Assembly (NCBI GenBank): GCA_040754625.1
Contig: JBFMCF010000096.1
Location: forward strand, 1,651 to 65,650
Source: a bacterium
Lineage (GTDB): Bacteria; JACRDZ01; JAQUKH01
Direction: 5' to 3'
DNA: 64,000 nucleotides
The stretch's first letter is position 1, and the number at the start of each line of letters is the position of its first letter. A model generated the notes under the pieces. The model did not search any database. It saw only the letters and a list, made by a program, of their open reading frames with translations, and had not been told where the DNA came from. The position numbers and the translations under genes were made by a program. Positions 2,294 through 63,284 of this stretch are shown in pieces.

Positions 2294-3631
2294 CTAATTA
2301 TAAGTTTCTGAGTTTTTGGTAAGCTTACTATTTACAAGAAGTATAATGTATAATCCAAGTCCATTTAGAAACATGTATCTCGCCAAAAATACGCTAAAGA
2401 GATATGACGTTACTATAAAAACTATTGATGTAATGAATACAACAGACGCAAGCCGTGAGTTTTGTCGTGAAAGAAGTCTATAGAAAAATGCATGCACTAC
2501 CAGTCCAAAACAAAAGATAAATATAAAAGACCCAAGCCCTCCGAAATCATATATTAAGCCGCGAAAAATTGTAAAAATATTCGTTTCAAATACATTATCA
2601 AAGTGGCCCGTTTCCATATATATTCCGGGCGAGAAGACCCTGGTAATTCCAAACGTGTTAAAGATAGACGCAAATGTGTAATATCCAAACGAGTTGAAAT
2701 CGTCCAAAAAAGTAGAAACCGATTCCATCCCAACATAAAACGAAAAGAAATCTGAAAAAGCATATATTTCCCCGAGCGTGTATGAAGTTATCGCAAATCT
2801 TAACAGACCAATGGTTCTACTCAAATTACCGGAATCAAAATACCCCTCTCGAGAAATAAATGATATCAATACAAGCGGGAGTAATAAAAATATAATACCG
2901 ATACTTTTCGGCATATAGGAAATTTTAAACAAATTAGTCTTGCCAGCATATATTTTCATTAAAAGAATTGATGCCAAATATAATGAGCTGGCAACAAACA
3001 AAACAAGTTTTGATGATTGTGTAACCATGATGTACAAAGCCGGAGTCAATGAAAGAGCAAGAAAAACCATTTTCCATGAGCGTGTTTTTTGAGAATAAGA
3101 AACAAAACCACCAAGGACTGGTGCTATATAGGTAAAAAACACACTTAAAGTACCTATGATTCCATACTCTAAACCCTTAGTTCCACGCATCGCAGCGAAG
3201 CGACCACTCGTAGCGATGGGATCAAAAAATATTGATTTAAGGTCATACCCGTTCAGAACCATACTGTAAGTTGAAAACACAATCGATAACACAATAGAAA
3301 TATATAAACAGCAGCGAATAAATTTACTGTCCAGTTGAGGTTCACATACAGATTTTTTAGTTTCATTCGCCTTGAATGCGTTCGACCAATTGAATGGTAA
3401 TGCGCTCAGCGAAAATGCCAACGTGCAGAGAAATATATATAAAATAGAAAATGGATTAATAGGTACATTAAATAATATAACTAATGGGAAAAATGTATAT
3501 ACGAACCATGCAAGTGAAAATATAGCGGCAGGGATAATGTACGTACCAACAGCAAGCCTTATAACAAATGCCTGCACAAGCATCATTACGCTGAATACTA
3601 TAGCCAACAGTTTATACTCAAATCCATACAT
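2294..3631 (-). CDS. Polytopic membrane protein, putative oligosaccharide repeat-unit polymerase (Wzy-like)
   Basis: 445 aa, more than 10 predicted hydrophobic spans, no catalytic soluble domains. It is the last gene of the polysaccharide array. Confidence 0.4.
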   Translation of the reverse strand: MYGFEYKLLAIVFSVMMLVQAFVIRLAVGTYIIPAAIFSLAWFVYTFFPLVILFNVPINPFSILYIFLCTLAFSLSALPFNWSNAFKANETKKSVCEPQLDSKFIRCCLYISIVLSIVFSTYSMVLNGYDLKSIFFDPIATSGRFAAMRGTKGLEYGIIGTLSVFFTYIAPVLGGFVSYSQKTRSWKMVFLALSLTPALYIMVTQSSKLVLFVASSLYLASILLMKIYAGKTNLFKISYMPKSIGIIFLLLPLVLISFISREGYFDSGNLSRTIGLLRFAITSYTLGEIYAFSDFFSFYVGMESVSTFLDDFNSFGYYTFASIFNTFGITRVFSPGIYMETGHFDNVFETNIFTIFRGLIYDFGGLGSFIFIFCFGLVVHAFFYRLLSRQNSRLASVVFITSIVFIVTSYLFSVFLARYMFLNGLGLYIILLVNSKLTKNSETYN

Positions 3632-3663
3632 GTTGATTTACCTATCACTAACCGCGATTGTTA

Positions 3664-3797
3664 TATTTCCACAAATCCCGATTTTGCCTGTAACTGGACA
3701 AATAAACCAGGAGCCTTGAAAAATTATAGAACCTGTTTGGGCCAATCAAACGCAAAACGACCCGCATTACCGAGTATATAATTTTAAATTTATTTTC
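3664..3797. repeat. About 135-bp direct repeat, copy 1 (flanks the TA insertion)
   Basis: About 90% identical to 4553..4693 (tatttccacaaatcccgatt[t/c]tgcctgtaactgga[c/t]aaataaacca...cgcattaccgagtatataattttaaattt). Confidence 0.85.
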
Positions 3798-3851
3798 TCC
3801 CGTTTCGCAAGCTGGTTGTTATCCCCCAAATTTACAATCCTTATACTTAAT

Positions 3852-4142
3852 TTACGCCGCCTTAAAACTAATAACCACTTCTTTCCCTAAAGCATGCGCG
3901 ATTTTATGCAATAATTTCAACGAAGGCACCCTTGTATCCGTGCCTTTTTCTAATCTGGCAATTACCGGCTGGCTGGTCCTGGCTTTTTGGGCAAGTTCTT
4001 TTTGGGTTATACCCTCTTTCTGCCTGATTTTCATAACAGCTTTTGCGATTCTATTTTTTATCAATTCGTCTTCGTAATAAATTCTGAATTCTTCATCTTT
4101 TATTTTTTCTTTAATTACGTCATCCAATAAAAGCGTTTTCAT
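3852..4142 (-). CDS. HTH XRE-family antitoxin (HigA-like)
   Basis: 96 aa; GITQKELAQKARTSQPVIARLEKG is a helix-turn-helix. It overlaps the upstream toxin gene by 23 bp, a toxin-first order as in HigBA. Confidence 0.6.
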   Translation of the reverse strand: MKTLLLDDVIKEKIKDEEFRIYYEDELIKNRIAKAVMKIRQKEGITQKELAQKARTSQPVIARLEKGTDTRVPSLKLLHKIAHALGKEVVISFKAA

Positions 4143-4473
4143 TTTTTAATACCTCCATTAAGCGTTTTGCCGCTACTTTTATTTCTTTATCCGGCGCCTT
4201 TTGCGATTGTTTTTTGTAAGAATGCAGCAAAACCATTATATTCTTTTTAATTGTTACATAAAATATTCTATATCCTCCGCCAATACTTCTTATTTTTATT
4301 TCCCAAAGTTTACCATCTATTTGTCGGAATTGAACTCTCGGAGATTCAAGTCCCAATTCCTGTATATTTTCCAAACACCCTAATATTTTTGCCTGATCAG
4401 TTTTTTCTAAACTATTAATAAATTCTAAAACAGGAGATTTCCCATTTGCACTTAAGAAAAATTTTATTTTCAT
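4120..4473 (-). CDS. Type II toxin, RelE/ParE superfamily (HigB/Gp49-like mRNA interferase)
   Basis: 117 aa. Size, the LWEIKIRSIGGGYRIFYV motif and pairing with the downstream XRE antitoxin fit RelE/HigB-family toxins. Confidence 0.5.
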   Translation of the reverse strand: MKIKFFLSANGKSPVLEFINSLEKTDQAKILGCLENIQELGLESPRVQFRQIDGKLWEIKIRSIGGGYRIFYVTIKKNIMVLLHSYKKQSQKAPDKEIKVAAKRLMEVLKNENAFIG

Positions 4474-4548
4474 ATCTTCTATTTTTTCTATATATTATAC
4501 CCATTTGGATATATTTGCAACTCTTATTTTAAAACACATGCAAAATAT

Positions 4549-5778
4549 TTAGTATTTCCACAAATCCCGATTCTGCCTGTAACTGGATAAATAAACCAGA
4601 AGCCTCGAAAAATCATAGAACCTGTTGGGGCCGATCAAACGCAAAATTGTCCGCATTACCGAGTATATAATTTTAAATTTAAATTTATTTTCTGATATCT
4701 TGGAATAGCCGCTTGGTTTATACGCAGATGAATGGCCTTTCTTTTCAAACAGGAAATTCTTCCTCGCGAAGCTGCCGACAACGCCGTTTGAGTCGAACGG
4801 ATCGTGGCCGGGAGGCAGTTCTTTTAAAATACACGCGTAAGCGCGGCGAAGCGTCGGGGATATATATTCCCCGCCGGACATATAATCAAACCCGTATTTT
4901 ATCGATTCCGCTCCTGTTTTTTTCGCGGAAAGCTTTTCCCCGTAGGCAGTGCCCAATTCTAAAAGGTCCGGCCGTTTTACATTTTTTTCGTATAAGGACC
5001 TTTTATTCAAATATTCCGGATCCGCGCCGTCAAAATTACTGAAGTGAAAAAAAATGAGAGGATAAATTTTATTTACAAGATAACGGCCTTCACTATCCTT
5101 TGTTATAAACCTCTCATATGAATTCCACGCGGCAGTATTATAACCTAAATTAAATGAAATATATATATCCTTGAATAAACAAGGCGCGATAGTAACCCAC
5201 TTCTGGTCCGTGGACAACCCGAATTGGGACTCCATAAAACTGAACTGCAGGCACCTGTTAGACCACCACTTTAAAAAAGATACTCCTTCCAGGGAATTTT
5301 TTACCGCGTAAAAACCCAGGTTAAACGAACCAAATCTCATCATAGCCATATCGCTTTCTGAAAAATTGTCGGATTGAGGTGTTGTATAGTGAGGGGTTAA
5401 GACTACTGAATGACCGTCTAAATCACATAAAACAGGTTCAACTGAATCATATAAACATGTATCAGCATCTAAAAATATTACCTTTTTAAATCTTTCAAAT
5501 AATTTTAAGGTAAGATACGGCTTAAGGCTGGTACTCAATTCTATGATATCATATTTAAACGCCAGCTCATAAAAGTCCGGAATGCCGACATCTTCAATCC
5601 AGACTATATTGGCTTCAACAGCAGAAAGATCAATAGTTGCCTTCTTATCAATAAGATATATTATTAACTTTATATTATTAAATTTTAATACCGATTCAGC
5701 AAGCACAAGCGCTTTAGGCATATAAGCTAAATTACAAACTGTAAAAATCGCATATTCCTGTTTTTTATCCGGAATCAC
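4549..5778 (-). CDS. Putative glycosyltransferase (GT-A-like, DxD motif)
   Basis: 409 aa, soluble, with the acidic motif FLDADTCLYDS. It lies in the glycosyltransferase block of the locus. Confidence 0.35.
   Translation of the reverse strand: MIPDKKQEYAIFTVCNLAYMPKALVLAESVLKFNNIKLIIYLIDKKATIDLSAVEANIVWIEDVGIPDFYELAFKYDIIELSTSLKPYLTLKLFERFKKVIFLDADTCLYDSVEPVLCDLDGHSVVLTPHYTTPQSDNFSESDMAMMRFGSFNLGFYAVKNSLEGVSFLKWWSNRCLQFSFMESQFGLSTDQKWVTIAPCLFKDIYISFNLGYNTAAWNSYERFITKDSEGRYLVNKIYPLIFFHFSNFDGADPEYLNKRSLYEKNVKRPDLLELGTAYGEKLSAKKTGAESIKYGFDYMSGGEYISPTLRRAYACILKELPPGHDPFDSNGVVGSFARKNFLFEKKGHSSAYKPSGYSKISENKFKFKIIYSVMRTILRLIGPNRFYDFSRLLVYLSSYRQNRDLWKY
4553..4693. repeat. About 135-bp direct repeat, copy 2 (overlaps the 3' end of the glycosyltransferase gene 4549..5778)
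   Basis: Near-identical to 3664..3797; contains an extra aaattt duplication. Confidence 0.85.
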
Positions 5779-6608
5779 TTTAATATCCTTTTTTTGGGCC
5801 CAAAAACATTAATTACCCTGACCAAAATTTGCCAGTAAATATACCCCGCGAATGAACGAATAACCGCGTAAGAGAATAAGATGTTCCCGCTTTTAATTGA
5901 GGCAAACAGCAATCTTATGCTTGCAAACGTGGTATCAAAAATCCGGTTAAAAGAATACTCGCGTAACAGCCTTTCCTTTCCAAAGATGACATACTTAGCA
6001 TCAGGCTGTTCCGACTCATGGTCAAAACCCGGAGTTTTTGAACACTCGCCGATCCTTAAATTATTATTATTTGATCGAAGGCAAAATTCATAATCCACGC
6101 AATCAACAAAATATTTTTCATTATGCCAGTTTATTCTTTTTAGGTTTTCGAGAAAAAATAAACTCCCGCTGCTTCTTGCCAGCAAAACATCTTTAAACAT
6201 AAATCTGTTCCCGGTAACTAAATCCCCATTTTTTTGTGTACCAAACACAATCGCGCTGTAACCGGATATTAAATTGGTGTTGTTAATATAAAAATCTTCA
6301 ACAAAATCCAAAGTATTACAATCAAATACCGTGTCCTGATCAAAAAATATTAAAGCAGGATATGAATCATAATACGCCTGGGCGCAAACAGATGAAATTC
6401 CAAAACCTAAACCCGCGTTTTTCCCACAAGTAATATATTTGGGAGTATTCGCATTGAATTTCCGGCAAAATTGCCTTATCAATTCATCTTCCGGGCTGTT
6501 ATCAAAAATATATATTGAAAACCCTGATGTTATCGCGCTTTGTAATCTGAGCGTCAGGTCTATATTTGGTTTGTAAGTAACCATTCCTATCGCAATTTTT
6601 CTATTCAC
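5775..6608 (-). CDS. GT2-family glycosyltransferase (WbbL-like rhamnosyltransferase type)
   Basis: IAIGMVTYKPNIDLTLRL...IFDNSPED...FFDQDT is the typical GT2 N-terminal signature. 4-bp overlap with the downstream gene. Confidence 0.55.
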   Translation of the reverse strand: MNRKIAIGMVTYKPNIDLTLRLQSAITSGFSIYIFDNSPEDELIRQFCRKFNANTPKYITCGKNAGLGFGISSVCAQAYYDSYPALIFFDQDTVFDCNTLDFVEDFYINNTNLISGYSAIVFGTQKNGDLVTGNRFMFKDVLLARSSGSLFFLENLKRINWHNEKYFVDCVDYEFCLRSNNNNLRIGECSKTPGFDHESEQPDAKYVIFGKERLLREYSFNRIFDTTFASIRLLFASIKSGNILFSYAVIRSFAGYIYWQILVRVINVFGPKKRILK

Positions 6609-6624
6609 TCTTATTCCCTTTAAA

Positions 6625-7896
6625 TTACAGTGACGTATATTTTTTCGCGTACATAAGTAAAATCATCAAATCGGCACCGGCCCTTATAACCCAGATGACC
6701 GCGGCTCCCGGCAATCCAAAATACTTTAAAAACATAAATAAAAGGGGAAAATAAAATACAAATTCTCCTAAATGTAAAATTGTGGTCATCTTGGCATTTC
6801 CTGCCGCTTGAACCGCGGCATAGGGGATTTGAGCTATGCCATTAAAAAATAATCCAACCGACAGAATAGAGGCAATTTTCCAGGAGTGTTGAGAAAAATC
6901 CCTTCCTAACCAAAGTGTTAAACCCCAATATGACCCGACAGCAATACTCAGGCATATCGCAAACATAGTAAGAGATGTTATTTTCAGGCTCTTTTTATAT
7001 ACGTTCTCAGCTCCCCTTTGATCCGCGCTCATCATAGAAGAAAGCCTTGGAAACAAAGCCGCTGCCAACGCACCGGGAATAATCAGAATACGAATTAAAA
7101 AATCAGAAGGCACAGTGTAATACGCGATTAAACCGGCACCTATCACGGATGAAATAATAAACCTGTCTGCCACCACCATTAAAGGGCTTACAATATTAGA
7201 CAAAGTCATCCAGGCACCAAATGAAAGCAGGTTGGATATCTCTTTCTCACTGCACTTTACCTTAATCCAGTTTATAGGCAACTTTTTATGCACTAAACAT
7301 ATATGCGCGCCTAATATCATAAACCTGGCTGCGATTAAACTGAACACTATCATATTAAGCGATGGTCCAAAAGCCATAACGCTTAAGACAGGTAACCCGA
7401 AATTAGCAAGCCCGAATAACAACCGCAGCAGATTAACTGTTTTAAAGTCTTCGAATGCTTCCAATACGCCTTTTAGCCCTGTTGTGAGAGTAACCATCGG
7501 GATACCAAATGCCACGATCAACAGGGAGTCAACTGTGTTTTGCTGCAGCGCCGCGCTGACATTCAGCCACTTAAAACCAAGCGGATTTGCCGCAACTGCT
7601 AATAAAACACCCCCAAAAGCCCCAGTAACTAACGTAAACAGCATCCCTGTCTTAACTAAACCAGATAATTTCTCAATTTGTTCTAACGCGCGATTAGCCG
7701 CGACTTGTTGAGTAAGCGCGCGGCCAAGCCCGAAATCAAAGAGGCTAAAATATCCAATTAAAGTCCATACAAGCGTAAGAATGCCGAATGCCTCTACTCC
7801 AATTTTATTTAACAAATACGGGATAGTGACAACACCCAGCAGGAATGGAATACCAGCCCCTGATATATTCCACAGCGTATTACGTTTCAATGACAT
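6625..7896 (-). CDS. wzx: Wzx-type polysaccharide flippase (MOP superfamily)
   Basis: 423 aa, about 12 TM. The N-terminus LWNISGAGIPFLLGVVTIPYLLNKIGVEAFGILTLVWTLIGYFSLFDFGLGRALTQ is the classic Wzx/PST start. Confidence 0.7.
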   Translation of the reverse strand: MSLKRNTLWNISGAGIPFLLGVVTIPYLLNKIGVEAFGILTLVWTLIGYFSLFDFGLGRALTQQVAANRALEQIEKLSGLVKTGMLFTLVTGAFGGVLLAVAANPLGFKWLNVSAALQQNTVDSLLIVAFGIPMVTLTTGLKGVLEAFEDFKTVNLLRLLFGLANFGLPVLSVMAFGPSLNMIVFSLIAARFMILGAHICLVHKKLPINWIKVKCSEKEISNLLSFGAWMTLSNIVSPLMVVADRFIISSVIGAGLIAYYTVPSDFLIRILIIPGALAAALFPRLSSMMSADQRGAENVYKKSLKITSLTMFAICLSIAVGSYWGLTLWLGRDFSQHSWKIASILSVGLFFNGIAQIPYAAVQAAGNAKMTTILHLGEFVFYFPLLFMFLKYFGLPGAAVIWVIRAGADLMILLMYAKKYTSL

Positions 7897-8018: not shown

Positions 8019-8119
8019 GCCATCGGGGATTTTTTTTATTTCCCGAAGGCTCACATTTGTTTTAGACCCTTCGTCGCTTTGCTCCTCAGGGTGAGTGGTC
8101 GAAACACACCGACCCCTCA
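8019..8119. repeat. MITE-like imperfect palindromic element, copy A (half element)
   Basis: About 85% identical over about 60 bp to the reverse complement of 39859..39920 (tgaggggtcgg.gtgtttcgaccactca.cctgagga..aa...gacgaagg.tctaaaa). It provides the last 11 codons and the stop of ORF 8086..9399. Confidence 0.6.
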
Positions 8120-9399
8120 TTTAATTCCTCTTGTTTTTTAACAATATTTTCAATAATAAATATTAAAGCGATATTAAACCATAAAAACATTGAAATTTTT
8201 TCGTTTTTATTATGGTTAGCAAAAAATATTGTAGTCTGTGAACAAAAAAAGTATCCAACCAAACTCAGCATTATGCCATCAAGTAAATTCTTTAGTTTAA
8301 TATCTTCTATTTTATTCCTCAACTCAAAACACTTTCTAAAAGAAATAACAATAATTATCAAAAAACTAACCAGGCCAATTATTCCGTTTTCCGGAGCGAT
8401 ATGCAAAAATATATTATGCGCGTGCCAGCCGCGCGGCCATTCTTCTTTCACCTCAACTCCTTTATACTTCTGAACAACAACATCATATGTGCCCGGTCCT
8501 GTTCCAAAAAATGGAAAATCTTTAATCATTTTTAAAGAGCTTCCCCATGTAGGGAGCCTGTCTCCAATACTGTCTTGTTTAAAATTTGCAATAGATATAA
8601 TTCTCGTTTTAATACTCGCGGGTAATATTAAATATAATAATACGACAGTCAATAAAATTAAAAGGAAAAATTTCCAATTTTTTAACACCCTGTTGTTAAG
8701 AATAATTAAAAATAAAAAAACGCCCGTAAAACCTATCCAGCTGCCGCGGGAATAACTAATTATTAAACCCATAATTAAAATAATTAATCCCAGTATAAAA
8801 AAAATCGAGGCGGCTGTTTTTTTACGGTAATTCATAAGAAAACTGATTAAAATAGGTATCAGGAGCACTGTCACGGCCCCAAATTCAGCACGGCCGCCAA
8901 AACTATAATAATTACGATTCCAGTAACTTAATTGCATTTTTATATGGTGATAAATACCACGGCTGACTGAATAAAGAACAGCTATTATTAAAATAAACAG
9001 TATTGCCTCCAGTTTGTTTTTATTATCAATATTATTTATTAATAAATAAGCCATGCCTATGTGAAGAAGAAAATCCCGAAAATATAAAAAACTGACCTTT
9101 GGCTGGGAAGAAAAAATTGAGGCGGATATAAATGTTATTAAATAAATTAAGACAGGAAAATCTAAATCGGTCTTTTGAAATTTAATTTCTTTATCAATAG
9201 CTTTTCTAATAAACCAGAATAATATTGCGGCAACTAAAATATTTTTCAAACTATGAAGGCTTATCATTTTACTGCCGACAGCAAAATCAAAGCCAATCCC
9301 GCCCATTACACTTATAAGCAATATGATTAAACTTAAAACCAAAATATCAAGAAATGTTTTAAAATTAATTGAAGGCATCATCATTAAAATACCCAACAA
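8086..9399 (-). CDS. O-antigen ligase/polymerase family membrane protein (Wzy_C domain), paralog A
   Basis: 437 aa polytopic. SRGSWIGF motif in a large periplasmic loop; G..PGT..D; WHAHNIFL. Close paralog of 14582..15853. Confidence 0.6.
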   Translation of the reverse strand: MLGILMMMPSINFKTFLDILVLSLIILLISVMGGIGFDFAVGSKMISLHSLKNILVAAILFWFIRKAIDKEIKFQKTDLDFPVLIYLITFISASIFSSQPKVSFLYFRDFLLHIGMAYLLINNIDNKNKLEAILFILIIAVLYSVSRGIYHHIKMQLSYWNRNYYSFGGRAEFGAVTVLLIPILISFLMNYRKKTAASIFFILGLIILIMGLIISYSRGSWIGFTGVFLFLIILNNRVLKNWKFFLLILLTVVLLYLILPASIKTRIISIANFKQDSIGDRLPTWGSSLKMIKDFPFFGTGPGTYDVVVQKYKGVEVKEEWPRGWHAHNIFLHIAPENGIIGLVSFLIIIVISFRKCFELRNKIEDIKLKNLLDGIMLSLVGYFFCSQTTIFFANHNKNEKISMFLWFNIALIFIIENIVKKQEELNEGSVCFDHSP

Positions 9400-9402
9400 A
9401 TT

Positions 9403-10182
9403 CTATCTACCCGGTTTTGTCTTTTCCCAATTTTCAGCCAAAAGAGCATAAGATATGCCGGCCATTAATGCCACAAAACACGAAAATACAATTATTGGTA
9501 CTTTTTTTGGAGAAACCGGATATTTTGATTTAACAGGGCCGTCAATTAATTTAAACTCTTTATTAACAACTAATTGTGTTTCCAATTGAAATTTTTGAAA
9601 TAACAAGTCTCTAATCTGCACCTTATCATCGGGATAAGCCAGGGGCGATACATTTTCCCTTTTAGCTAACGCGTTTTTATCCGCGCTAAGTTTGGTTTTT
9701 TCAATCAGGTTTTCAACTTGATAAATCTGATTTCTTATTAAATCAGTTTGTCTATTATAATTTGAATTCCCATATTCAATATAAACACTGACTATTTCCT
9801 TGCATAAAGAATATGCAATATCATTATCTTTTAACCTGACCTTTAACATAAATAAATTACTTTCTTTAATATTTTCTAATAAAATCATTTTTTTTATTTC
9901 ATGTTCTTGTGGAATTCTTAAGCCTATTTTTTCAAAAATCGGATTTAAAAAAAGTCCCGACCTTATTAGTGTTGACGCTTCCGGATAAGTTATAATCGGC
10001 ACATTTATATAACCATTTTGTATAGTTGCTTTTACCTCATAAGTTTTGGGAATAATAAATATTATAATACTCGCTAAAACCATTGCAACAAGAGCTGTAC
10101 TTAAAATAAAAGTTTTTCGTTTATTAATAATCTGAATAAAATCTATAAGGCCGATTTCTTCATTATATTTTGGATTTAACAT
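9403..10182 (-). CDS. Wzz-like chain-length determinant (polysaccharide co-polymerase, short form)
   Basis: 259 aa with an N-terminal TM (FILSTALVAMVLASIIIFIIP), a coiled-coil periplasmic segment and a C-terminal TM (VPIIVFSCFVALMAGISYALL). Confidence 0.5.
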   Translation of the reverse strand: MLNPKYNEEIGLIDFIQIINKRKTFILSTALVAMVLASIIIFIIPKTYEVKATIQNGYINVPIITYPEASTLIRSGLFLNPIFEKIGLRIPQEHEIKKMILLENIKESNLFMLKVRLKDNDIAYSLCKEIVSVYIEYGNSNYNRQTDLIRNQIYQVENLIEKTKLSADKNALAKRENVSPLAYPDDKVQIRDLLFQKFQLETQLVVNKEFKLIDGPVKSKYPVSPKKVPIIVFSCFVALMAGISYALLAENWEKTKPGR

Positions 10183-10259
10183 TTATTAATTACCTCCTTT
10201 TTCAAAAGTCACATCTTGCAAGTTTTAGATTTATACTTATAATAACCAATTTTTGTTTT

Positions 10260-11865: not shown

Positions 11866-11880
11866 TTAAACCTCCAAATA

Positions 11881-15853: not shown

Positions 15854-15883
15854 TATTTTACTATTTATGACTAAGCGGATTTA

Positions 15884-46246: not shown

Positions 46247-46310
46247 TTAAATCTCCCATTAAAACATTTACTTTCTGCATGATCAACTGGAATTATGGAA
46301 CCAACAAAAC

Positions 46311-46886: not shown

Positions 46887-46892
46887 CTTTTT

Positions 46893-48658: not shown

Positions 48659-48691
48659 GATTATAGACAGAAATTAAATAGCCGTGATATC

Positions 48692-50648: not shown

Positions 50649-50705
50649 TGTTTTCCCCTGGCTTTCTCTGTTCTAAGCAGGCAACATAGCCTAAAACAGG
50701 TTTTT

Positions 50706-51710: not shown

Positions 51711-51751
51711 TTTCTAACTTTCCTCATAACTCACGGCCACATTTTTGGTGT

Positions 51752-52504: not shown

Positions 52505-52521
52505 TTCTAATGATAGAAAGC

Positions 52522-53631: not shown

Positions 53632-53919
53632 CTAAAAAATCTCCTTTTCAGTTTATTAATTATAAATTTATTTTACAATAACCAACTATGCAAATATTTT
53701 AATATTCTCCCCTCCTCCCATAATACATCTTCATAATTAACTTTCAACTGATTCGTTATAGCCAGTGCAATATAACAATTCTTTCATTCCTTGTCAACAG
53801 GAATTTTAAATGAAAGTATCCTCATTTTTAAAATAATGATTAGAATGGATAATATAATTTTTTTAATAAATCAGGAACCTTGTGAATATTTTATCGTTGA
53901 ATAATGATTAGCTTTTAAG

Positions 53920-55437: not shown

Positions 55438-55582
55438 ATAGTAATAATAAATGAGACGGCATTGTTATATTATTTTATTATTGATACTTACGAAATCCCC
55501 TGGTGCTTTTGTTTTTTTATAGTGCTTCGCCCTCTCAGTTACATTTCTGTAAACAGTAACCAACGATGGGCAATTTAAATTC

Positions 55583-56152
55583 TTAAATTTTTTCAACATC
55601 TGATGCATCTATTTTTAAAGACGCACCATGCATAAGCACGTCCACTGAAATTATTAGTATATGCTGTCCGGACCTTTTTGAAAGAACACCTTCGACTCCT
55701 GAAAGAGGGCCTTTTTTTATCCTCACTCTCTGTCCTTCTTTCAAATAAGGATACGGATCGAGGGGTTCCCGGCTTTCAACAATTCTTCTTAGAAAAATAA
55801 TTTGTTCCTCCGGTACAGGCTCCGGTTCACCATGTTTTATCCCAAGAAATTTCACTACACCCGTTGTCTTCAAAACATTTAACACATTTTGGGGATTTTT
55901 AAGCATATTAACAAAAAGATATCCCGGGAAGAGCGGAAACTTTACCAGTTTTTTTCTATCCTTCCATCTGTTTAGTTTCTCCACAACAGGGAGAAATGTG
56001 TTTATCCCGGTTTCTGTTAACCTCTCCAATACCTTAAACTCATGCCGGGACCTCACATGAATAACATACCAAAAAGCTTTATTAGAAAATTCGAATGGAG
56101 ATTTTCCACTAACAGAATAAAACTTTGAAACCACTCTATCCGATGGATTCAT
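55583..56152 (-). CDS. NusG-family transcription antiterminator paralog (RfaH/UpxY/LoaP-like); start trimmed to the internal Met
   Basis: NGN domain (WYVIHVRSRHEFKV...FPGYLFV) plus a C-terminal KOW (EGQRVRIKKGPLSGVEGVL). The ORF-track N-terminal 39 aa overlap kpsF and look non-coding. Confidence 0.6.
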   Translation of the reverse strand: MNPSDRVVSKFYSVSGKSPFEFSNKAFWYVIHVRSRHEFKVLERLTETGINTFLPVVEKLNRWKDRKKLVKFPLFPGYLFVNMLKNPQNVLNVLKTTGVVKFLGIKHGEPEPVPEEQIIFLRRIVESREPLDPYPYLKEGQRVRIKKGPLSGVEGVLSKRSGQHILIISVDVLMHGASLKIDASDVEKI

Positions 56153-56243: not shown

Positions 56244-57209
56244 TTATAAACCAATGCTGATAAGATCATGCATTCTGACCATACCTACAACAATTTTTTT
56301 CTTATTTATAACAGGCAAAATTGTTATTGGTTTTTCCCTTTTTTCCATCATTTCCAAAGCTGTAAAAGCTTTCTCATTTTCATAAATAAAAATTGGTTTT
56401 TTATTCATAATATCGTTGATTTTCAATTTAAAAATATCTTTCCCTTTTTCTAGAATTCTTCTTATGTCATAATCCGTTACAAGCCCAATTAATCTACTTT
56501 TTTTATCAATTACTGAAACGGCCCCTGCTTTTTTTTCTGTAATAACCATTAACATTTTGTGAATATTGTCGTATTCGTTAACAACCGGATTCTCCATACC
56601 GCATAACATAATATCCGAAACTAAAAGGTTAAGCCTTTTCCCCAAACGTCCGCCTGGATGAAAAAATGCGAATTCTTCAACCTTGAAATTTCTAAGCTTC
56701 ATTAGTACGACCGCAAATGCGTCCCCAATAACAATTGACACGGTAACGCTTGATGTAGGGGCAAGATTAAAAGGGCATGCTTCTTTAATATCTCCGATAT
56801 TTATTACAATGTCCGAAGTTCTTGCTAAAGGCGAGTTTTTATTGGAAGTTATTGATATAATTTTTACTTTGATTTTTTTAAGGAAAGGAAGCAGGGTGTT
56901 TAATTCGGAACTTTCACCGCTTTTCCCGATAGCAATCACGACATCAGACGAATTTACAATTCCAAGGTCCCCGTGCATAGCTTCCGAGGGATGCATAAAA
57001 ATAGCAGGTGTACCTGTGCTCGCCATTGTGGAAGCAATCTTTTTCGCGGCTATACCTGATTTCCCAATACCTGTTATTATTACCTTTCCCCTGCAATTTA
57101 AAATGGCATTAATCGCTTTTTCAAATTCCCTGCTTACTTCTTTTTTAATATCGGATAGCGCGTTTATTTCAATATCTATGACTTTTTTTATTTCGGCTTG
57201 AATATTCAC
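56244..57209 (-). CDS. kdsD: Arabinose-5-phosphate isomerase (KpsF/KdsD; SIS + tandem CBS)
   Basis: SIS domain GKVIITGIGKSGIAAKKIASTMASTGTPA plus two C-terminal CBS domains; 321 aa. Confidence 0.75.
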   Translation of the reverse strand: MNIQAEIKKVIDIEINALSDIKKEVSREFEKAINAILNCRGKVIITGIGKSGIAAKKIASTMASTGTPAIFMHPSEAMHGDLGIVNSSDVVIAIGKSGESSELNTLLPFLKKIKVKIISITSNKNSPLARTSDIVINIGDIKEACPFNLAPTSSVTVSIVIGDAFAVVLMKLRNFKVEEFAFFHPGGRLGKRLNLLVSDIMLCGMENPVVNEYDNIHKMLMVITEKKAGAVSVIDKKSRLIGLVTDYDIRRILEKGKDIFKLKINDIMNKKPIFIYENEKAFTALEMMEKREKPITILPVINKKKIVVGMVRMHDLISIGL

Positions 57210-57213
57210 AATT

Positions 57214-57738
57214 CTAAATTTTTTGTTTTATTTTGATGACAAAATCACAAAATTCTCTTACAGCGCCCTTCCCTCCGCGGGCTTTTGTAATATGCAGTGA
57301 TATTTTTTTAACTTCAGGATACGCGTCAGCCACACAAACAGGCAAACCAACAATCTGCAGACATTCGAGGTCATTTATATCATTTCCCACGTAAGCTGTT
57401 TTTTCCAAATCAATTCCTATTTTTTTCACTTCCCTTCTAAGAACTATGGCCTTGTGGTCTATTCCCTGTATACAAGGTATTCCTAGTTTTTTACAGCGGA
57501 CCGAAACAACGGGATTGACTTCCTTGGAAATGACAAGCATTTTAAGGCCGATATCTCTCAACATATTCAGCCCTAAACCGTCACTCCTGGAACATAAAAC
57601 ACCTTCTGAACCATCCTGCATAACTAAAACCCTGTTGTCAGTAAATACCCCATCAAAATCAAACACAATTAATTTTATCCCCGCAGCTATTTTCTCAATG
57701 TCTAACATGGATAGCGGTTTAAAATATTTTTTATTCAT
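57214..57738 (-). CDS. kdsC: HAD-IIIA phosphatase, Kdo-8-phosphate phosphatase type
   Basis: IVFDFDGVFTDNRV...NMLRDIGLKMLVISKEVNPVVSVRCKKLGI...YVGNDINDL...GLPVCVADA. Confidence 0.7.
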   Translation of the reverse strand: MNKKYFKPLSMLDIEKIAAGIKLIVFDFDGVFTDNRVLVMQDGSEGVLCSRSDGLGLNMLRDIGLKMLVISKEVNPVVSVRCKKLGIPCIQGIDHKAIVLRREVKKIGIDLEKTAYVGNDINDLECLQIVGLPVCVADAYPEVKKISLHITKARGGKGAVREFCDFVIKIKQKI

Positions 57739-58433
57739 TACTGTTTTTTTTCATTAAGATTTTTTAATCTATTTACTAAGTCATTCTTTTTAATATATTC
57801 AAAAATAAATACAAAAAAAACAGCAAAAACAAGACTGGATATTCCTGTTAAAATAGATTTCTTAATTAATCCTCTTGGCATTCTTGTTTCAGGTGGAACC
57901 GCGCGGTCAATCACCTGGACCAGGGAAATATTTGTGCTTAATTGAAGTTCCCTATTAAAATTATCTAATTTATCCAGATACGAGTTAGCAATTTTTGCAG
58001 ACAATTCCGGATCCTGAGTTATAACATCTAAGGTTATAACACTTCCTTTACCTAACGAAATTGTTGTTATACCTCTAAGCTTTATTCTTGTATCTTCTAA
58101 AAGAGTTTCATTCCATGTTGTTTTCAATTGCAACTCATTAATAATTTTATCCGCCATTTCCCTGCTTTTCAAAATTGAAATTATCAAATCTTCAAGAACC
58201 AATTTGGGTTTTAATACTTCTCCTGCCATATTTTCAGATTTATATTCCTTCACATTTAACGGGAAGAAAGTAACAGAAGCCTTATATTTAAACGGCTGTT
58301 TTAATATATTTATTGCGTTTAAACATACCGATATTAATACTATACCAATAACAATATTTCTATATTTATATATGACCTTAAAATATTCAAATAAATCTAT
58401 TTCCTCTTCTCTGCTGAATTCTTCAACCGGCAT
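57738..58433 (-). CDS. Wzz-like chain-length determinant / polysaccharide co-polymerase (second copy)
   Basis: 231 aa with an N-terminal TM (IVIGIVLISVCLNAI), a periplasmic coiled-coil and a C-terminal TM (ILTGISSLVFAVFFVFIF). Adjacent to wza. Confidence 0.5.
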   Translation of the reverse strand: MPVEEFSREEEIDLFEYFKVIYKYRNIVIGIVLISVCLNAINILKQPFKYKASVTFFPLNVKEYKSENMAGEVLKPKLVLEDLIISILKSREMADKIINELQLKTTWNETLLEDTRIKLRGITTISLGKGSVITLDVITQDPELSAKIANSYLDKLDNFNRELQLSTNISLVQVIDRAVPPETRMPRGLIKKSILTGISSLVFAVFFVFIFEYIKKNDLVNRLKNLNEKKQ

Positions 58434-58534
58434 AAAAATCCTTTTTATAATTTATAATAATCAATTATCTCAATTAAATAATTATCTATGTCAGTCAATC
58501 TATTTTTTAAAATATCTTTTTTAAAAGAATATTT

Positions 58535-58975
58535 TTATCTGCCATTTAAAGCTTCTTTCCTAATCGCTACAATCATGCCTTTCTGCATTTTTTTAAGTAA
58601 AAATTGATAATCCAGATATTGGACTATTGTTTTGCTTTTGAACAAAGATAATTTATCCCTGTCCCGTTCAAAAACCACTCTCCCGTTTTTAATTATCTGA
58701 TAAGACAAAATTTCCCCTGTCTCCTGGAAAATCACCAAATCTATTTCTTTATTCAACAATTTCGCAATATCATTCTTGAACTTAAGTCTGGACATAAAAC
58801 TCTCTTGTTTGTTTTTGTACGGTTCAGTAAGGACAGCTATATCAACATCACTCTCTGGCCTCTGTTTATCTTCAGCGTAAGATACAAAAAGATAAAGAGC
58901 AATTATCTCTTCATTACCCTGGCCGTATTCTTTTAAGATTTTTTCCATATCATTAATCATATTGTTATCTTTCAA
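58535..58975 (-). CDS. Minimal nucleotidyltransferase (MNT / Pol-beta superfamily, antitoxin-like)
   Basis: LFVSYAEDKQRPESDVDIAVL: G.S...D.D NTase motif. 146 aa; no HepT/HEPN partner seen. Confidence 0.5.
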   Translation of the reverse strand: MKDNNMINDMEKILKEYGQGNEEIIALYLFVSYAEDKQRPESDVDIAVLTEPYKNKQESFMSRLKFKNDIAKLLNKEIDLVIFQETGEILSYQIIKNGRVVFERDRDKLSLFKSKTIVQYLDYQFLLKKMQKGMIVAIRKEALNGR

Positions 58976-58978
58976 ATT

Positions 58979-60589
58979 TTATTTTTTGTTTTCTAAATCT
59001 TCTTCCTTTTCCGGGACAATGATAATGTCCCCGCGGGAAATAATTTCATCACCTTTTAATTTCGTGAGGACCTTTCCGCTTGCTTTAACAATATAAATCC
59101 CATTTACGTGCGCCCTTTCCGTAAGCCCCCCAACTATATCCAGGTAATAATTTATATTATTGCCTTCTTTGAAAATCACGGTCTCAGGGTTATAAACCGC
59201 CCCGCTTATCATTACCCATTCAGGGACAGGCGGTATATATAAACTATCGCCTTTTTCAAGGATTATATCATCTTCTCCATTGCTTATTTTAGAAAAATCA
59301 ATAATTATCCTGCCCCTGGGGGATTGGGCCGCGAATAATTGCAATGCCTTTTTTCTTTTATCTATTCCTGCCTGCCGGATTTCTCTTTCTTCCTTTAATA
59401 TCAGGGCTTCCGCCAAGCTTGCTTCTTCTTCCTGGATACCTATCTCTCTTGCCCTGATTTCCTTGTTAATTATTTCTTTTTGCTTTTCTATTAACACCTG
59501 CCTTGTCAAAATAATCCCTTCAGGGTAAGCCCATTCCGTCACCCCCTCGAACCGTTTAATTAAACTGCTGAGTTTCTCGCCGTCTTTAATTATATAGCTT
59601 CCCGGGTTAACCGCCTCACCTGTAACAGTGACAGTTTTCATCATATCTTTCCCGAAAGGAGTAAAATTATATTCCGGTGTAATAAGAATTGTGTCCATAT
59701 ACTCAATCCTTATATCATCTTTCGTGTTTATTATTTTTTCGAAATCGTCTGTTATAATTTCTTTCACGGCAATAATATTTTTAGTTTCATTATTAAAACG
59801 CATAACCTGTATTTTTTTATTAGATTTACCGGGAATAACGCCTGATGCTGTATTTATTACTGCCGACAGATTCGAATCTTTATTTATTTCATATATTCCG
59901 GGCCGGACAACATCCCCCCGGACTGCGGCTAAATTTTCTATAAGAGGGACAAAAATCTTGTCACCGTGCTGAAGCGTAATATTTTTTGAATCATCGCCTT
60001 TTAAAACAAACTGGTAAAAATCAAAAATACCTATAACCTTATTTCCCCTTACCAATCTTATATTTTTTAAGCTCCCGTTTTCAGCAGGCCCGCCGGTAAT
60101 TATCAATCCATCTAAAATTCTGGCAAAAGGGCTTATGGAGAACATCCCGGGCTTTCGGACACTTCCCAAAACTGAAATACGTATATCCTGGACATTCCCC
60201 AAACTTAAATCGAACTGGACATTTACATATTTCTGGTTTAACGCATTTTTTATCTTTTCCTTTACCTCTTCAAGGACACTACCTACCACATAAACCGACC
60301 CGATGCGGGGAATAAGAATTTTTCCGTCATTATCGATTACAAGTGTGTATTTTTCTTCTATCTTTCCCCAGAGATTAATCACCAGTGTATCCCCGACACC
60401 TAATTTAAAATCCGGCTCCAGACGGTAAATTTCGCCTTTAAAAGGCGTAGAAAAAGCCTTGGCAAATTCTGCGTTCCCTACGCGCTCTAAATCTCTGTTA
60501 AACTGGTAAAAAAGATCATCGGCAAGAGATGTTTTAACAAAAAATACCGTTAAAATAATTAATATGATGTTTTTAAGTAATCCGCGCAT
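58979..60589 (-). CDS. wza: Polysaccharide export outer-membrane protein (Wza-like; Poly_export + SLBB domains)
   Basis: Signal peptide, then a Poly_export motif region (YRLEPDFKLGVGDTLVINLWG) and repeated SLBB-like beta-grasp segments; 536 aa. Confidence 0.75.
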   Translation of the reverse strand: MRGLLKNIILIILTVFFVKTSLADDLFYQFNRDLERVGNAEFAKAFSTPFKGEIYRLEPDFKLGVGDTLVINLWGKIEEKYTLVIDNDGKILIPRIGSVYVVGSVLEEVKEKIKNALNQKYVNVQFDLSLGNVQDIRISVLGSVRKPGMFSISPFARILDGLIITGGPAENGSLKNIRLVRGNKVIGIFDFYQFVLKGDDSKNITLQHGDKIFVPLIENLAAVRGDVVRPGIYEINKDSNLSAVINTASGVIPGKSNKKIQVMRFNNETKNIIAVKEIITDDFEKIINTKDDIRIEYMDTILITPEYNFTPFGKDMMKTVTVTGEAVNPGSYIIKDGEKLSSLIKRFEGVTEWAYPEGIILTRQVLIEKQKEIINKEIRAREIGIQEEEASLAEALILKEEREIRQAGIDKRKKALQLFAAQSPRGRIIIDFSKISNGEDDIILEKGDSLYIPPVPEWVMISGAVYNPETVIFKEGNNINYYLDIVGGLTERAHVNGIYIVKASGKVLTKLKGDEIISRGDIIIVPEKEEDLENKK

Positions 60590-60672
60590 ATTTTCTCCAG
60601 TAAAATGAAATTGATATTATCATATAAAATAAAATTGTGTCAACTGATAAAACTATTTTTTATTATTTATTA

Positions 60673-61560
60673 TTATTCTTTATCCGGCAAATTGTTAATT
60701 TCGTCTTTATGGGCAAGAATAAATGATTCGAATTCAGTGCTGTCCATTAGATTAGACAGGCTTTTTATTATATCAGCCTGGATACTTTTATCCTGTTTTA
60801 AAAGGTCAACCATAGGTTCTATCGCGCGTTTGTCTTTTATTTTGCCCAGGGATTCCAGTATTGCCAAACGGACACCGCCCTCCTCAATCTTGAGGGCTTC
60901 AACCAGCGGACCTACCGCGCGGGTATCTTTGATATTGCCAAGTGCAATTACTACGCCGCATTGAAGGAACATATCATCCCGGAAATTCAGAAACCCTAAA
61001 AGGGTTTCGACTGCACGCTGGTCACCTATCCTGCCCAAAACTTCGGCCGCTTTTAATTTAACACCGGTATCCTCTTCATTTTTAAGTGTGTTAATAAGCG
61101 GTTCAACCGCGGGCCCGCCCATTTTGGCAAGTACATTCATTACTTCGTTATGCAGCGAACTGAAAGTATTTTTAAGTTCCGAAATAAGTAAATCCACTGA
61201 TGTGTCGCCCATACAACTCAAGGTTTTTACGGCCCCTTCACGTAAATTTTCGCTGTCGTCTCCAAGCGCCTCAATAAGGATTATTACCGCAGGTTTACCT
61301 ATCTTACATAACGCTTCTGATACCTCTTCACGAATATTTTCATTGCTGTCCTGGAATGTTTCAATAAGGCTTTTCACAGCGCGTCCGTCTCTTAATTCGC
61401 CTAAATCCATTACGGCCTTTTTGCGGATATTACTGTCGCGATTTTTAAGTAAATCAATAGTTTCCTGCATTTTTTCCGGGGTTGTCTGTGATTGAGAATC
61501 CCCCAGACCGAACAAAAACCCGAAAAATAAAGTTAGAATGAATATTTTCTTTGACTTCAC
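60673..61560 (-). CDS. Secreted HEAT/PBS-lyase-repeat protein
   Basis: Signal peptide MKSKKIFILTLFFGFLFGLG followed by about 8 HEAT-like repeats (D...R..A...LG.....AV..L...L.D). Confidence 0.5.
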   Translation of the reverse strand: MKSKKIFILTLFFGFLFGLGDSQSQTTPEKMQETIDLLKNRDSNIRKKAVMDLGELRDGRAVKSLIETFQDSNENIREEVSEALCKIGKPAVIILIEALGDDSENLREGAVKTLSCMGDTSVDLLISELKNTFSSLHNEVMNVLAKMGGPAVEPLINTLKNEEDTGVKLKAAEVLGRIGDQRAVETLLGFLNFRDDMFLQCGVVIALGNIKDTRAVGPLVEALKIEEGGVRLAILESLGKIKDKRAIEPMVDLLKQDKSIQADIIKSLSNLMDSTEFESFILAHKDEINNLPDKE

Positions 61561-61637
61561 GATCTTTTCCTTAGAGCTCTTGATACAGTTTTAACACTAT
61601 ATGATACCAGATTTTTGAAAATTTGTGAAAATTTTTT

Positions 61638-63284
61638 TCAGGTTTCTTTGAAGATACTCAAAAGATGCGGGGCCAACTGTTTTTTGCGGGACAAAACGCC
61701 TTTTAATTCGGCAATATGCGGTTCCAGTAAAGGGTAACCCAAACGGCGGCAGAGATTAACATCTCCGTCAAAAACCAATAAGCTGTTCGATACCGAAATA
61801 TCCGTTACGAGAAGGGCGGAAAAATTATATTTGCGGCTGCGCCTTATTTTTACAAGTTCTTCAGTAAGCCGGTGTTTAATTTTGTCAAATTCGCTAAAAC
61901 CGACTAATTCTATCTGGCCCACTCCAAAAGTAATTTTCCCTGTTTTATACTCCTTAAAATCAGAAAGTATAATTTCCTCGGGGCTGCGGCCCGCAATATT
62001 CACCCCTGATGCCAATAGTTTCGCGCTATAGATTTCTAAATCCAGTTTCGCGGTATTATTGAGCCTTTCCATCATCTCTTTATCCAATGCGGTTGTCGTA
62101 GGAGATTTTAAATTAACAGTATCCGATATTATTCCCGAAATCAAAAGCCCTGCAGTTTTCGGATCTATTTCGATATTTTTTTCAAAATAAAGCCTGGATA
62201 TTAAAGTGCATGTGCTTCCCACCGGCTGGTTAATGAACAATATAGGATGCAGGGTTTCACGGTTGGCGAGCCTATGATGGTCTATAATCTCCATAATCTC
62301 GCACTGGTCTGCCCCGTCCACTGATTGCGAAATTTCATTATGGTCTATTAAAATGAGCTTTGGTTTGGAGAATTTCAAAAAATCAGCCATGGTAATTATC
62401 CCGGTAATTTTATGCTCCTCGTTAAGCACCGCCATGCCCCTGTTATAAGCCTTCAGGATTTTTAGCTGTGCCTCTTCCAATAACTCATCCGCGGTAAATG
62501 TGCCGTCGTAATTTTGCGCCACACGGTAAGCCGGTGTACTCAGCCTGACAAATCCAAGTGTTGTAGCGGTATCATATGGTGAAACTAGGAGGTTTACATT
62601 ATGCTCAACCGCCATACGGCGTATTTCTTCGGAAATGGACAGCCCGCCTGTAACCACGAGTGCCCTTACCCCGTTTTCAATAGCAATCTCCTGGATTTCC
62701 TCCCTATCCCCGGTTATCACAATACATTTTTTATGGTCAAGCCCGGACAAAACCTTGCCAAAAGAAAGTTCCTGCATCGCGCCCACAAGAAAAATTCCCT
62801 GGAAAACGTCATCAGAATGGTAAGCGTTCAGCAATTTTCCTCCGAGAGCGGCATGTATATACTTGACTGATGTAAAAATTTCACGTGAGTTTAACGGTGT
62901 CACCTCGCGAAAAAGCCCGTGGGCGATATCAAATAAGCTTACTATCCCGCAGTAACAATCCCTTTCATCAACCAACGGTATTAAACGGATATTATTTTTT
63001 TCCATCACAGCCAGTAATTCTTTTAATGATGCGTTCTTATTGCAAAAAATCACCTCTTTACTCATCGCATGTCCCACGTTGGGCGTGATGTCCGGAAGGA
63101 ATAAAGGCGCGGGAACACCAAAATATGATAATACAAATTCCGTTTGCAGGTTAAGGTTCCCCGCCCTCGCGGGAACCACATTATTTTCCCCCTGGGATTG
63201 TTTGAGTTTCGCGTATGCAATTGCCGCGCATATTGAATCTGTATCGGGGTTTTTATGGCCGATTATGAATATATTACTAATCAT
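61638..63284 (-). CDS. CBS-domain-containing family-II (DHH/DHHA2) inorganic pyrophosphatase-like phosphoesterase
   Basis: N-terminal DHH motif (IIGHKNPDTDSICAAIAYA), internal CBS pair and DRTGG-like region, C-terminal DHHA2 (LIDHNE...GADQCEIMEIIDHH). 548 aa. Confidence 0.65.
   Translation of the reverse strand: MISNIFIIGHKNPDTDSICAAIAYAKLKQSQGENNVVPARAGNLNLQTEFVLSYFGVPAPLFLPDITPNVGHAMSKEVIFCNKNASLKELLAVMEKNNIRLIPLVDERDCYCGIVSLFDIAHGLFREVTPLNSREIFTSVKYIHAALGGKLLNAYHSDDVFQGIFLVGAMQELSFGKVLSGLDHKKCIVITGDREEIQEIAIENGVRALVVTGGLSISEEIRRMAVEHNVNLLVSPYDTATTLGFVRLSTPAYRVAQNYDGTFTADELLEEAQLKILKAYNRGMAVLNEEHKITGIITMADFLKFSKPKLILIDHNEISQSVDGADQCEIMEIIDHHRLANRETLHPILFINQPVGSTCTLISRLYFEKNIEIDPKTAGLLISGIISDTVNLKSPTTTALDKEMMERLNNTAKLDLEIYSAKLLASGVNIAGRSPEEIILSDFKEYKTGKITFGVGQIELVGFSEFDKIKHRLTEELVKIRRSRKYNFSALLVTDISVSNSLLVFDGDVNLCRRLGYPLLEPHIAELKGVLSRKKQLAPHLLSIFKET

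Follow-up and report, generated by a model that had tools for sequence, protein, structure and literature searches.

A mosaic 58-kb polysaccharide locus with a UpxY-family gene, a candidate ops-like site and two apparently interleaved Wzx/Wzy assembly lines

How is a polysaccharide locus of 56 genes, all on one strand, transcribed, and how many glycans does it assemble? The question is raised by a 64,000-nucleotide stretch of bacterial DNA (the window; NCBI GenBank assembly GCA_040754625.1, contig JBFMCF010000096.1, positions 1,651 to 65,650 of the forward strand), which a preliminary description had read as two or three glycan assembly lines fused head-to-tail. The answer that we favour, with a little more than even confidence, is a single antiterminated surface-polysaccharide array, for a capsule or an O-antigen, that would be transcribed from one ops-like site, the candidate recruitment site of a NusG paralog (UpxY) encoded in the locus itself, and that would carry two interleaved Wzx/Wzy-dependent lines sharing a single initiating phosphoglycosyl transferase (PGT) and a single Wza.

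The window contains 61 non-nested open reading frames (ORFs) of at least 70 amino acids, every one of them on the minus strand, and the 61 proteins were assigned with Pfam and NCBIfam profiles whose scores were read against the curated cut-offs. The locus proper extends on the minus strand from Wza (60589) to the last Wzy gene (2294), comprising 58,296 bp and 56 genes with 96% of the sequence coding, and the profiles place nearly all of these genes in polysaccharide synthesis or export. Among the 55 junctions there are 15 overlaps, 18 gaps of 0–30 bp, 15 gaps of 31–100 bp and seven gaps of more than 100 bp, these last spanning 101–288 bp. The one-strand locus of about 60 kb and more than 55 genes described initially is therefore borne out, as is its tight packing in overlaps and very short gaps, apart from the seven larger ones. 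The gene calls agree with the NCBI count: the accession numbers of UpxY and of a ligase-family protein encoded farther downstream lie 38 apart, and 38 is also the distance by our own count. The UpxY, ligase-family and flippase proteins match exactly those of a metagenome-assembled genome at NCBI, where they lie on a contig of 93,484 bp. What had been overlooked was the UpxY gene, the fact that there is only one PGT, and the presence of five co-oriented genes with no polysaccharide function (UpxY, an MNT-like gene, an ORF6N-domain gene, a toxin and an antitoxin).

The UpxY-family NusG paralog is encoded at 55583–56152 on the minus strand. It scores 127.9 bits with the UpxY model NF033644 (cut-off 100) and falls below the cut-offs for RfaH (TIGR01955, 85.8 against 144.5), LoaP (73.7 against 125) and NusG (46.6 against 135.7); its sequence matches in the PDB are NusG and RfaH. 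The NCBI annotation starts the protein at 56269, giving 228 aa and running into the KpsF gene, but its homologs are 168–189 aa long and the 39-aa N-terminal extension is missing from them; the true start is probably the ATG that gives 189 aa and leaves a 92-bp AT-rich gap. The gene lies inside its presumed target operon, with the export block on one side and 50 co-directional genes for biosynthesis on the other, and UpxY is likewise encoded inside a polysaccharide operon in ten related locus types (related loci are designated here by L numbers). The closest named homologs, such as that of Dissulfurispira thermophila, are 60–71% identical and belong to Nitrospirota/Thermodesulfovibrionales, which led us to reject the affinity to Bacteroidota suspected from the UpxY match and to assign the contig tentatively, by this one protein, to the neighbourhood of Nitrospirota. 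In distant Nitrospirota-type relatives (L003, L018, L020 and L024) a 193-aa HTH_24/MarR-like gene is found directly upstream of UpxY, at about 9300–9996 in each.

The candidate ops-like recruitment site occupies 55520–55570 on the minus strand, starting 12 nt past the UpxY stop codon and 87 nt ahead of the start codon of the first Wzx gene. It is made up of a 40-nt hairpin-forming stretch (55570–55531) abutting the core GCGAAGC (55530–55524), and the 18-nt ops-like core is present in a single copy in the window even when three mismatches are allowed. Rfam returned no relevant match for the site, either at the gathering threshold or at E-values up to 10. The element recurs: each of the ten related locus types that were fetched has a hairpin followed by GAGGGCGRAGC beside UpxY, and a search with the degenerate 11-mer over 428 kb (the window and the fetched loci) gave a match beside UpxY in every UpxY locus and only two unrelated matches. 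The element is located downstream of the UpxY gene in L002 (position 10533), L017 (593), L018/19, L020–23 (10583 in L020) and L024–26 (10644 in L024), and upstream of it in L003/L004 (9964) and L018/19; in L018 the two copies are at 9967 and 10629. In the distant relatives the 44–50 nt upstream of the core fold as a hairpin reaching precisely to the core, with energies of −14 to −22 kcal/mol (z −2.5 to −7) and inner stems that differ in sequence yet pair.

This design resembles that of the published Bacteroides opsX, in which a pause hairpin and the non-template element 5'-YGCGNAGCR directly after it together span about 40 bp (PMC11685472). B. fragilis has CTGCGAAGCATA as its PSE site and E. 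coli has GCGGTAGC as its ops core (PMC11685472); the window sequence GCGAAGCA agrees at every base with the core of the PSE site. As in the Bacteroides system (PMC11685472), a UpxY-family NusG paralog is encoded within a co-directional polysaccharide operon and a predicted hairpin precedes GCGNAGC. The layout is different, in that the window site lies downstream of upxY whereas the Bacteroides site lies in the leader upstream of it, and the window locus is two to three times longer, with an export block upstream of upxY. Furthermore, no small UpxZ candidate is found beside UpxY, where the next gene encodes the 505-aa Wzx; a search for Bacteroides-style invertible-promoter repeats near the candidate promoters gave only weak AT-rich pairs; and the organism is probably not a member of Bacteroidota.

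RfaH is recruited at a short non-template element containing GCGG/AGC and suppresses polarity in long envelope-polysaccharide operons; control of polysaccharide operons by NusG paralogs is established in Bacteroides and Proteobacteria. The window shares with the RfaH ops/JUMPStart system of Proteobacteria a specialised NusG paralog and a long envelope-polysaccharide operon. Unlike RfaH, which is encoded apart from its targets, UpxY is encoded inside the operon; its RfaH score remains under the cut-off and Rfam gave no JUMPstart match. A literature search found no paper mentioning UpxY together with Nitrospir*, nor a description of the site-after-upxY layout outside Bacteroidota. The hairpin and GCGRAGC element beside UpxY in ten related loci outside Bacteroidota is a concrete candidate for a NusG-paralog recruitment site in uncultured Nitrospirota-like bacteria, and it would extend the opsX model to another phylum in a different layout, with the site after the gene of the factor and with neither UpxZ nor an invertible promoter.

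The data presented above have led us to propose a model whereby transcription would enter from ahead of Wza, of upxY or of both, RNA polymerase would pause at the sole ops-like site just past upxY, and the operon-encoded UpxY would load onto the polymerase there. So modified, the polymerase would then transcribe about 53 kb, with 50 genes, as far as the Wzy gene at 2294. That the polymerase pauses and UpxY loads at the candidate site, and that read-through extends to 2294, is what we infer from the sequence. Read-through from one site would account for the strictly uniform orientation, for the close packing of the genes and for the orientation of the passengers among them, and since expression would rely on it, incoming cassettes would have to be co-oriented but would need no promoter of their own. 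Antitermination thereby offers a simple reason for strict co-directionality despite the swapping of cassettes. The best sigma-70-like promoter match is found in the 83-bp gap upstream of Wza (60616–60643, minus strand; TTGACA-16-GATAAT); it is a consensus match only, at 11 of 12 positions.

Several observations weigh against this model. The head block, from Wza to KpsF, is located upstream of the ops-like site and would hence lie outside its reach. Seven gaps exceed 100 bp, and that at 53631–53920 holds a sigma-70-like match at 11 of 12 positions, making internal promoters possible; the best internal candidate is at 53797–53769. Two gaps hold structured repeats that are potential terminators or processing sites. 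As for the site, the hairpin of the window copy folds only weakly (−8 kcal/mol, z −1.1), GCG is preceded there by G where Bacteroides opsX has Y, and RNAalifold gave no consensus structure for the alignment of the elements because the hairpin arms are out of register, for which reason single-sequence folds were used.

The larger gaps could also be taken to separate several independent co-oriented operons with promoters of their own, UpxY serving only the first few genes. In addition to the match at 53797–53769, sigma-70-like matches are found in gaps at 26722–26694 and 17778–17750, and the structured elements of two gaps would fit such a division. Moreover, co-directionality is not specific to the locus: both flanks and the insertion sequence (IS) debris share its orientation, so that orientation by itself proves no single operon. 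We nevertheless consider separate operons unlikely. Scans for sigma-70 promoters and intrinsic terminators showed no excess of either over shuffled sequences, a chance-level result that leaves the operon structure undecided, but 33 of the 55 junctions overlap or are at most 30 bp long, known factors of the UpxY/RfaH type serve to express long operons from one site, and no second ops-like site is present in the window.

A bolder form of the antiterminated array, which we put forward only tentatively, is that one ops-like site after upxY lets RNA polymerase transcribe the whole stretch of about 53 kb as a single unit of 50 genes, a plug-in platform, and that the same combination of UpxY and ops-like site is general in Nitrospirota and their relatives. 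If this were true, the unit would be among the longest bacterial operons, and any co-oriented cassette dropped into it, a toxin–antitoxin pair included, would be expressed without its own promoter. The Bacteroides opsX mechanism would then be ancient and not confined to gut Bacteroides.

The number of glycans was approached through the export and assembly genes, all on the minus strand. PGT, Wzx, Wzy, PCP/Wzz and OPX/Wza are all present, comprising a complete Wzx/Wzy-dependent pathway. The sole Wza/OPX (58979–60589) has Poly_export and SLBB domains. Two Wzz proteins (Wzz#1, 57738–58433; Wzz#2, 9403–10182) each have a Wzz domain and two transmembrane (TM) segments, and two Wzx flippases (Wzx#1, 53920–55437, 505 aa; Wzx#2, 6625–7896), both matching Polysacc_synt, are 23% identical to each other. 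The last gene of the locus (2294–3631) encodes a Wzy repeat-unit polymerase with 12 TM segments that scores 61.2 bits with TIGR04370 (cut-off 40). A putative Wzy-like polytopic protein of about nine TM segments is encoded at 31293–32762; it has no Pfam or NCBIfam match and only weak similarity to the ligase-family pair described below (30% over 106 aa to one of the paralogs). The PGT (17803–18363; Bac_transf, 204 bits) is the only one in the window, as neither a second Bac_transf PGT nor a WecA-type match was found among the 61 proteins. The two Wzx, two Wzz and one Wza of the preliminary description are therefore all accounted for, and its three or four membrane proteins of the Wzy/ligase family come to four.

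The remaining two of these four are ligase-family Wzy_C paralogs (#1, 14582–15853; #2, 8086–9399). They score 88.7 and 83 bits with Pfam Wzy_C (gathering score 31.7) and have 10–11 TM segments, as expected of the WaaL family, and they are 67.5% identical as proteins and 73–78% identical as DNA. The family profile matches the sequence of the WaaL structure 7TPG weakly (E 3.6e-5), and the proteins stay under the equivalog cut-offs for RfaL (46 against 277) and PEP_O_lig_1 (85 against 188). A role as serotype-specific polymerases was considered and is disfavoured, as position and sequence are kept in relatives with different cargo; a Wzy_C protein at a fixed position amid varying glycans would rather point to a ligase whose acceptor stays the same.

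The window thus has two complete sets, each with a Wzx, a Wzy candidate, a Wzz and a ligase-like protein. In the model, two Wzx/Wzy-dependent lines would make two different lipid-linked repeat units, both started by the single PGT; both would depend on the one Wza, with the two ligase-family paralogs attaching the products to acceptors. Different Wzx substrates are suggested by the low identity of the two flippases, while the shared PGT, the separateness of the products and the ligase function are predicted from the gene content. There is a precedent in the unipolar polysaccharide (UPP) system of Agrobacterium tumefaciens, where two polysaccharides depend on two Wzx and two Wzy but on one shared initiating transferase and one Wza-type exporter (bioRxiv 10.1101/2021.04.22.440995), so that two glycans may share one PGT and one OPX. 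The UPP genes, unlike those of the window, are scattered over several clusters, and control by a NusG paralog is not reported for them. The genome could encode another PGT or a WecA outside the window, which would count against the sharing. The lines appear interleaved and to share parts rather than simply fused head-to-tail, since PGT, Wza, antiterminator and ops-like site each occur only once, and a cassette found intact elsewhere is split in two. Of the earlier proposal, the duplication of the assembly sets stands and the head-to-tail fusion does not; a third independent line is unsupported, the glycerol-phosphate, Kdo and heptose genes being precursor or decoration modules.

Comparison with relatives shows that the cargo of the locus is a mosaic, made up of a conserved head, variable sugar and glycosyltransferase (GT) cassettes, a conserved anchor, a GDP-fucose set, a duplicated ligase and a cross-phylum trio with its own Wzy. 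The head block (56244–60589, minus strand) consists of Wza, an MNT-like insert, Wzz#1, a KdsC-like gene and KpsF. In L002, whose UpxY is 76% identical, the head is found in the same order (Wza-Wzz-KdsC-KpsF-UpxY) at 64–75% amino acid identity and without the MNT gene, but is followed by cargo of a different, nonulosonic-acid type. In L017, L018/19, L020–23, L024–26 and D. thermophila, UpxY heads co-directional polysaccharide genes with different cargo in each, and in five relatives that share UpxY or the head block with the window the cargo is altogether different. The inner anchor (WbpM, ligase-family #1 and ManC; 13146–17722, minus strand), with the PGT adjoining upstream, is repeated in order wherever the context of the ligase homologs is visible, in L005, L006 and L007: PGT (82%), WbpM (90%), ligase (62–70%) and ManC (81%). 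Only the head block and this PGT-WbpM-ligase-ManC anchor (62–90%) recur in relatives. Close homologs of the ligase-family protein itself number only about seven among 5.8 billion proteins, and a metagenome scan with the alignment of the family returned distant proteins only (at most 33% identity), with no gene context.

The trio consists of Wzx#2 and two GT genes (4549–7896, minus strand), encoding a 277-aa GT (5775–6608) and a 409-aa GT8-like GT (4549–5778). It is 78–85% identical to genes of the metagenome contig L027 (186–3512) and 70–74% identical to an Elusimicrobiota locus from a metagenome-assembled genome (MAG; L028, 504–3855), and named homologs of Wzx#2 at 57–82% identity come from Chlorobium, Bacteroidota and Betaproteobacteria, a distribution that suggests an O-unit module passed widely between lineages. 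Its GC content is 0.39 against 0.30 in the adjoining Wzz#2-ligase#2 block; the blocks overall range from 0.30 to 0.39, and the housekeeping flank has 0.42. In L028 the trio belongs to a compact cassette, Wzx-GT-GT-Wzy-FnlA-FnlB-FnlC-GT4-epimerase-PGT. The window carries both halves of a cassette of this type (22823–17803 and 7896–2294) in swapped order and 9.6 kb apart, with the conserved anchor, the GDP-fucose genes, Wzz#2 and ligase#2 between them. Nine L028 cassette genes have counterparts in the window, eight of them at 49–85% identity, and the genes at 17803–25447 are 49–63% identical to the second half of the cassette. Compared with these L-FucNAc-type O-unit cassettes (L027, L028), the window version is split, is without FnlA and carries WbuXYZ in addition, and its Wzy is unrelated to theirs. 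In L027, Wzx directly follows Wzz with no ligase gene between them, so ligase#2 would be an insertion or duplication peculiar to this contig. The mosaic character proposed initially is upheld by the different cargo of the five relatives, the recurrence of head and anchor only, the cross-lineage trio and the steps in GC content; the complete array was not found as a conserved core, and the sub-modules vary between relatives.

In another interpretation, the locus builds one very complex glycan and the second copies of Wzx, Wzy, Wzz and ligase are redundant or decaying leftovers of recombination. There is after all a single PGT and a single Wza, FnlA is missing, and the IS debris, a toxin–antitoxin insertion and repeat scars point to recent rearrangement. 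This we regard as improbable: the duplicated assembly genes are all intact and full-length with the expected TM counts, the two Wzx share only 23% identity, the second Wzy exceeds its curated cut-off, and the maintenance of the trio at 70–85% across lineages argues for function.

Alternatively, the contig might be an assembly chimera in which the polysaccharide loci of two strains from one community were joined. The contig comes from a MAG, polysaccharide loci are strain-variable, and the position of ligase#2 between Wzz#2 and Wzx#2 was not seen in any related contig. The two ligase copies, however, are only 73–78% identical in DNA and too diverged to collapse in an assembly graph, a false join cannot generate an extra diverged copy, and the PGT-WbpM-ligase-ManC and Wzz-Wzx-GT-GT adjacencies were each found independently elsewhere. 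We therefore hold a chimera to be very improbable indeed, and retain the two interleaved lines.

The length and the mosaicism of the locus have precedent, and it is a further example from a poorly studied lineage. The rfb locus of Leptospira encodes 88 proteins in L. interrogans Lai; it begins with a MarR gene, and its conserved ends enclose a variable interior of syntenic blocks that have been shuffled (PMC10958091). It is likewise very long and mosaic, and loci of distant UpxY relatives also begin with a MarR-like HTH gene; the phylum and the sugar chemistry differ, and a UpxY/ops system is not mentioned in PMC10958091.

The sugar modules, all on the minus strand, are described here from upstream to downstream. 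In the head block, KpsF arabinose-5-phosphate isomerase (56244–57209) scores 289.3 bits (cut-off 203.7) and the KdsC-like phosphatase (57214–57738) 103.4 bits (cut-off 106.95). No KdsA or KdsB domains were found among the 61 proteins, so that the Kdo branch seen earlier is reduced to these two genes and a CMP-Kdo pathway is incomplete. Downstream of UpxY, the block at 50076–55437 comprises Wzx#1, a 369-aa protein with a faint GT-like match, a short-chain dehydrogenase/reductase, a radical-SAM enzyme and a methyltransferase. It is followed by a module resembling those for GDP-(6-deoxy)heptose (39992–49873), in which all equivalog scores lie under cut-off: a 393-aa protein with a faint GT2-like match, an HddC-like nucleotidyltransferase (148.8 bits, cut-off 300), a Gmd-like 4,6-dehydratase, a NUDIX protein, two Fcl-like reductases, an RmlC-like epimerase, a split transketolase, an HddA-like GHMP kinase (140.3 bits, cut-off 600) and a 317-aa protein. 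The heptose-like label thus holds for the sub-threshold HddC-like and HddA-like matches, but neither GmhA nor GmhB is present in the window to complete a GDP-D-glycero-D-manno-heptose pathway, and a heptose-like sugar is only a prediction from the genes. The transketolase is encoded by separate N- and C-terminal genes (42004–43772) beside the HddA-like kinase and may supply sedoheptulose phosphate.

A decoration block (34015–39811) includes an AsnB-type amidotransferase, a TagD-like cytidylyltransferase, a TagF-like glycerophosphotransferase, a methyltransferase and a second AsnB-type amidotransferase 34% identical to the first; the TagD-like and TagF-like genes correspond to the glycerol-phosphate module described previously. 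The GT block that follows (25510–34013) contains four GT4 genes (at 32781, 30132, 29068 and 25510), the Wzy-like protein, a FkbM methyltransferase and a B12-radical-SAM enzyme. The next block (17803–25447) contains WbuX-WbuY-WbuZ for acetamidino modification, an FnlB-like reductase, an FnlC-like 2-epimerase, a GT4, an epimerase/reductase and the PGT. Scores are 313 for WbuX (cut-off 203), 383 for the WbuZ/AglZ-family model (310), 250 for the FnlC/WecB model (210) and 404 for the FnlB-like protein (500). The FucNAc/FucNAm-like assignment accordingly stands for WbuXYZ and the FnlB-like and FnlC-like genes, but the window contains no FnlA ortholog for a UDP-L-FucNAc/FucNAm pathway, the only resemblance being the membrane-bound WbpM/CapD-type UDP-GlcNAc 4,6-dehydratase of the anchor (15884–17722; 34–38% identity). 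The lack of FnlA, KdsA/KdsB and GmhA/GmhB in the window leaves the pathway assignments incomplete and is a further point against the favoured model.

The GDP-L-fucose module reported earlier is present in full. ManC (13146–14585, in the anchor) has three domains, Gmd (11881–13071) scores 486.7 bits with its Pfam model, and Fcl (10260–11324) reaches 440.8 bits with NF047922, just below the cut-off of 500, its match falling in two stretches around an insertion. Gmd and Fcl are part of the block at 8086–13071, and between them lies a co-oriented passenger, the ORF6N-domain gene (11311–11865, minus strand).

Two further passengers form an inserted pair close to the downstream end, a HigB/Gp49-like toxin (4120–4473) and an HTH antitoxin (3852–4142), within 3664–4681 on the minus strand. 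The pair is bracketed by a 129-nt direct repeat (3664–3792 and 4553–4681, 91% identical) that duplicates the 3' end of the GT gene and looks like an insertion scar inside the operon. The MNT-like nucleotidyltransferase between Wza and Wzz#1 (58535–58975, minus strand), absent in L002, has no HepT partner. A 65-nt repeat occurs only twice in the window, in two of the large gaps, at cassette junctions and in opposite orientations: copy A is located in the gap between ligase#2 and Wzx#2 (8060–8124, plus strand) and copy B in the 180 bp that separate the heptose-like module from the AsnB/Tag block (39854–39918, minus strand). The copies are 88% complementary, and their host gaps fold better than shuffled sequences (z −2.6 and −3.2); the element may be a miniature inverted-repeat transposable element (MITE) or an element like the repetitive extragenic palindromic (REP) sequences, a terminator or a processing site.

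The upstream limit of the locus was first placed at the CBS-pyrophosphatase gene. This CBS-DRTGG-DHH pyrophosphatase (61638–63284) and a HEAT-repeat protein (60673–61560), identified by Pfam within 60673–63284 on the minus strand, instead belong to a housekeeping flank: in L001 they are 83% and 78% identical, respectively, lie 8 kb apart and are not followed by Wza. L001 is the single relative returned by a genome scan with the pyrophosphatase, and no polysaccharide locus adjoins that gene there. At the other end, the minus-strand IS debris (1–2159) consists of an IS110-family fragment (12–287), an rve fragment (320–583) and a full transposase with HTH and rve domains (849–2159). These three transposase genes or fragments directly beyond the last Wzy gene suggest an IS-rich boundary or a recombination hotspot.

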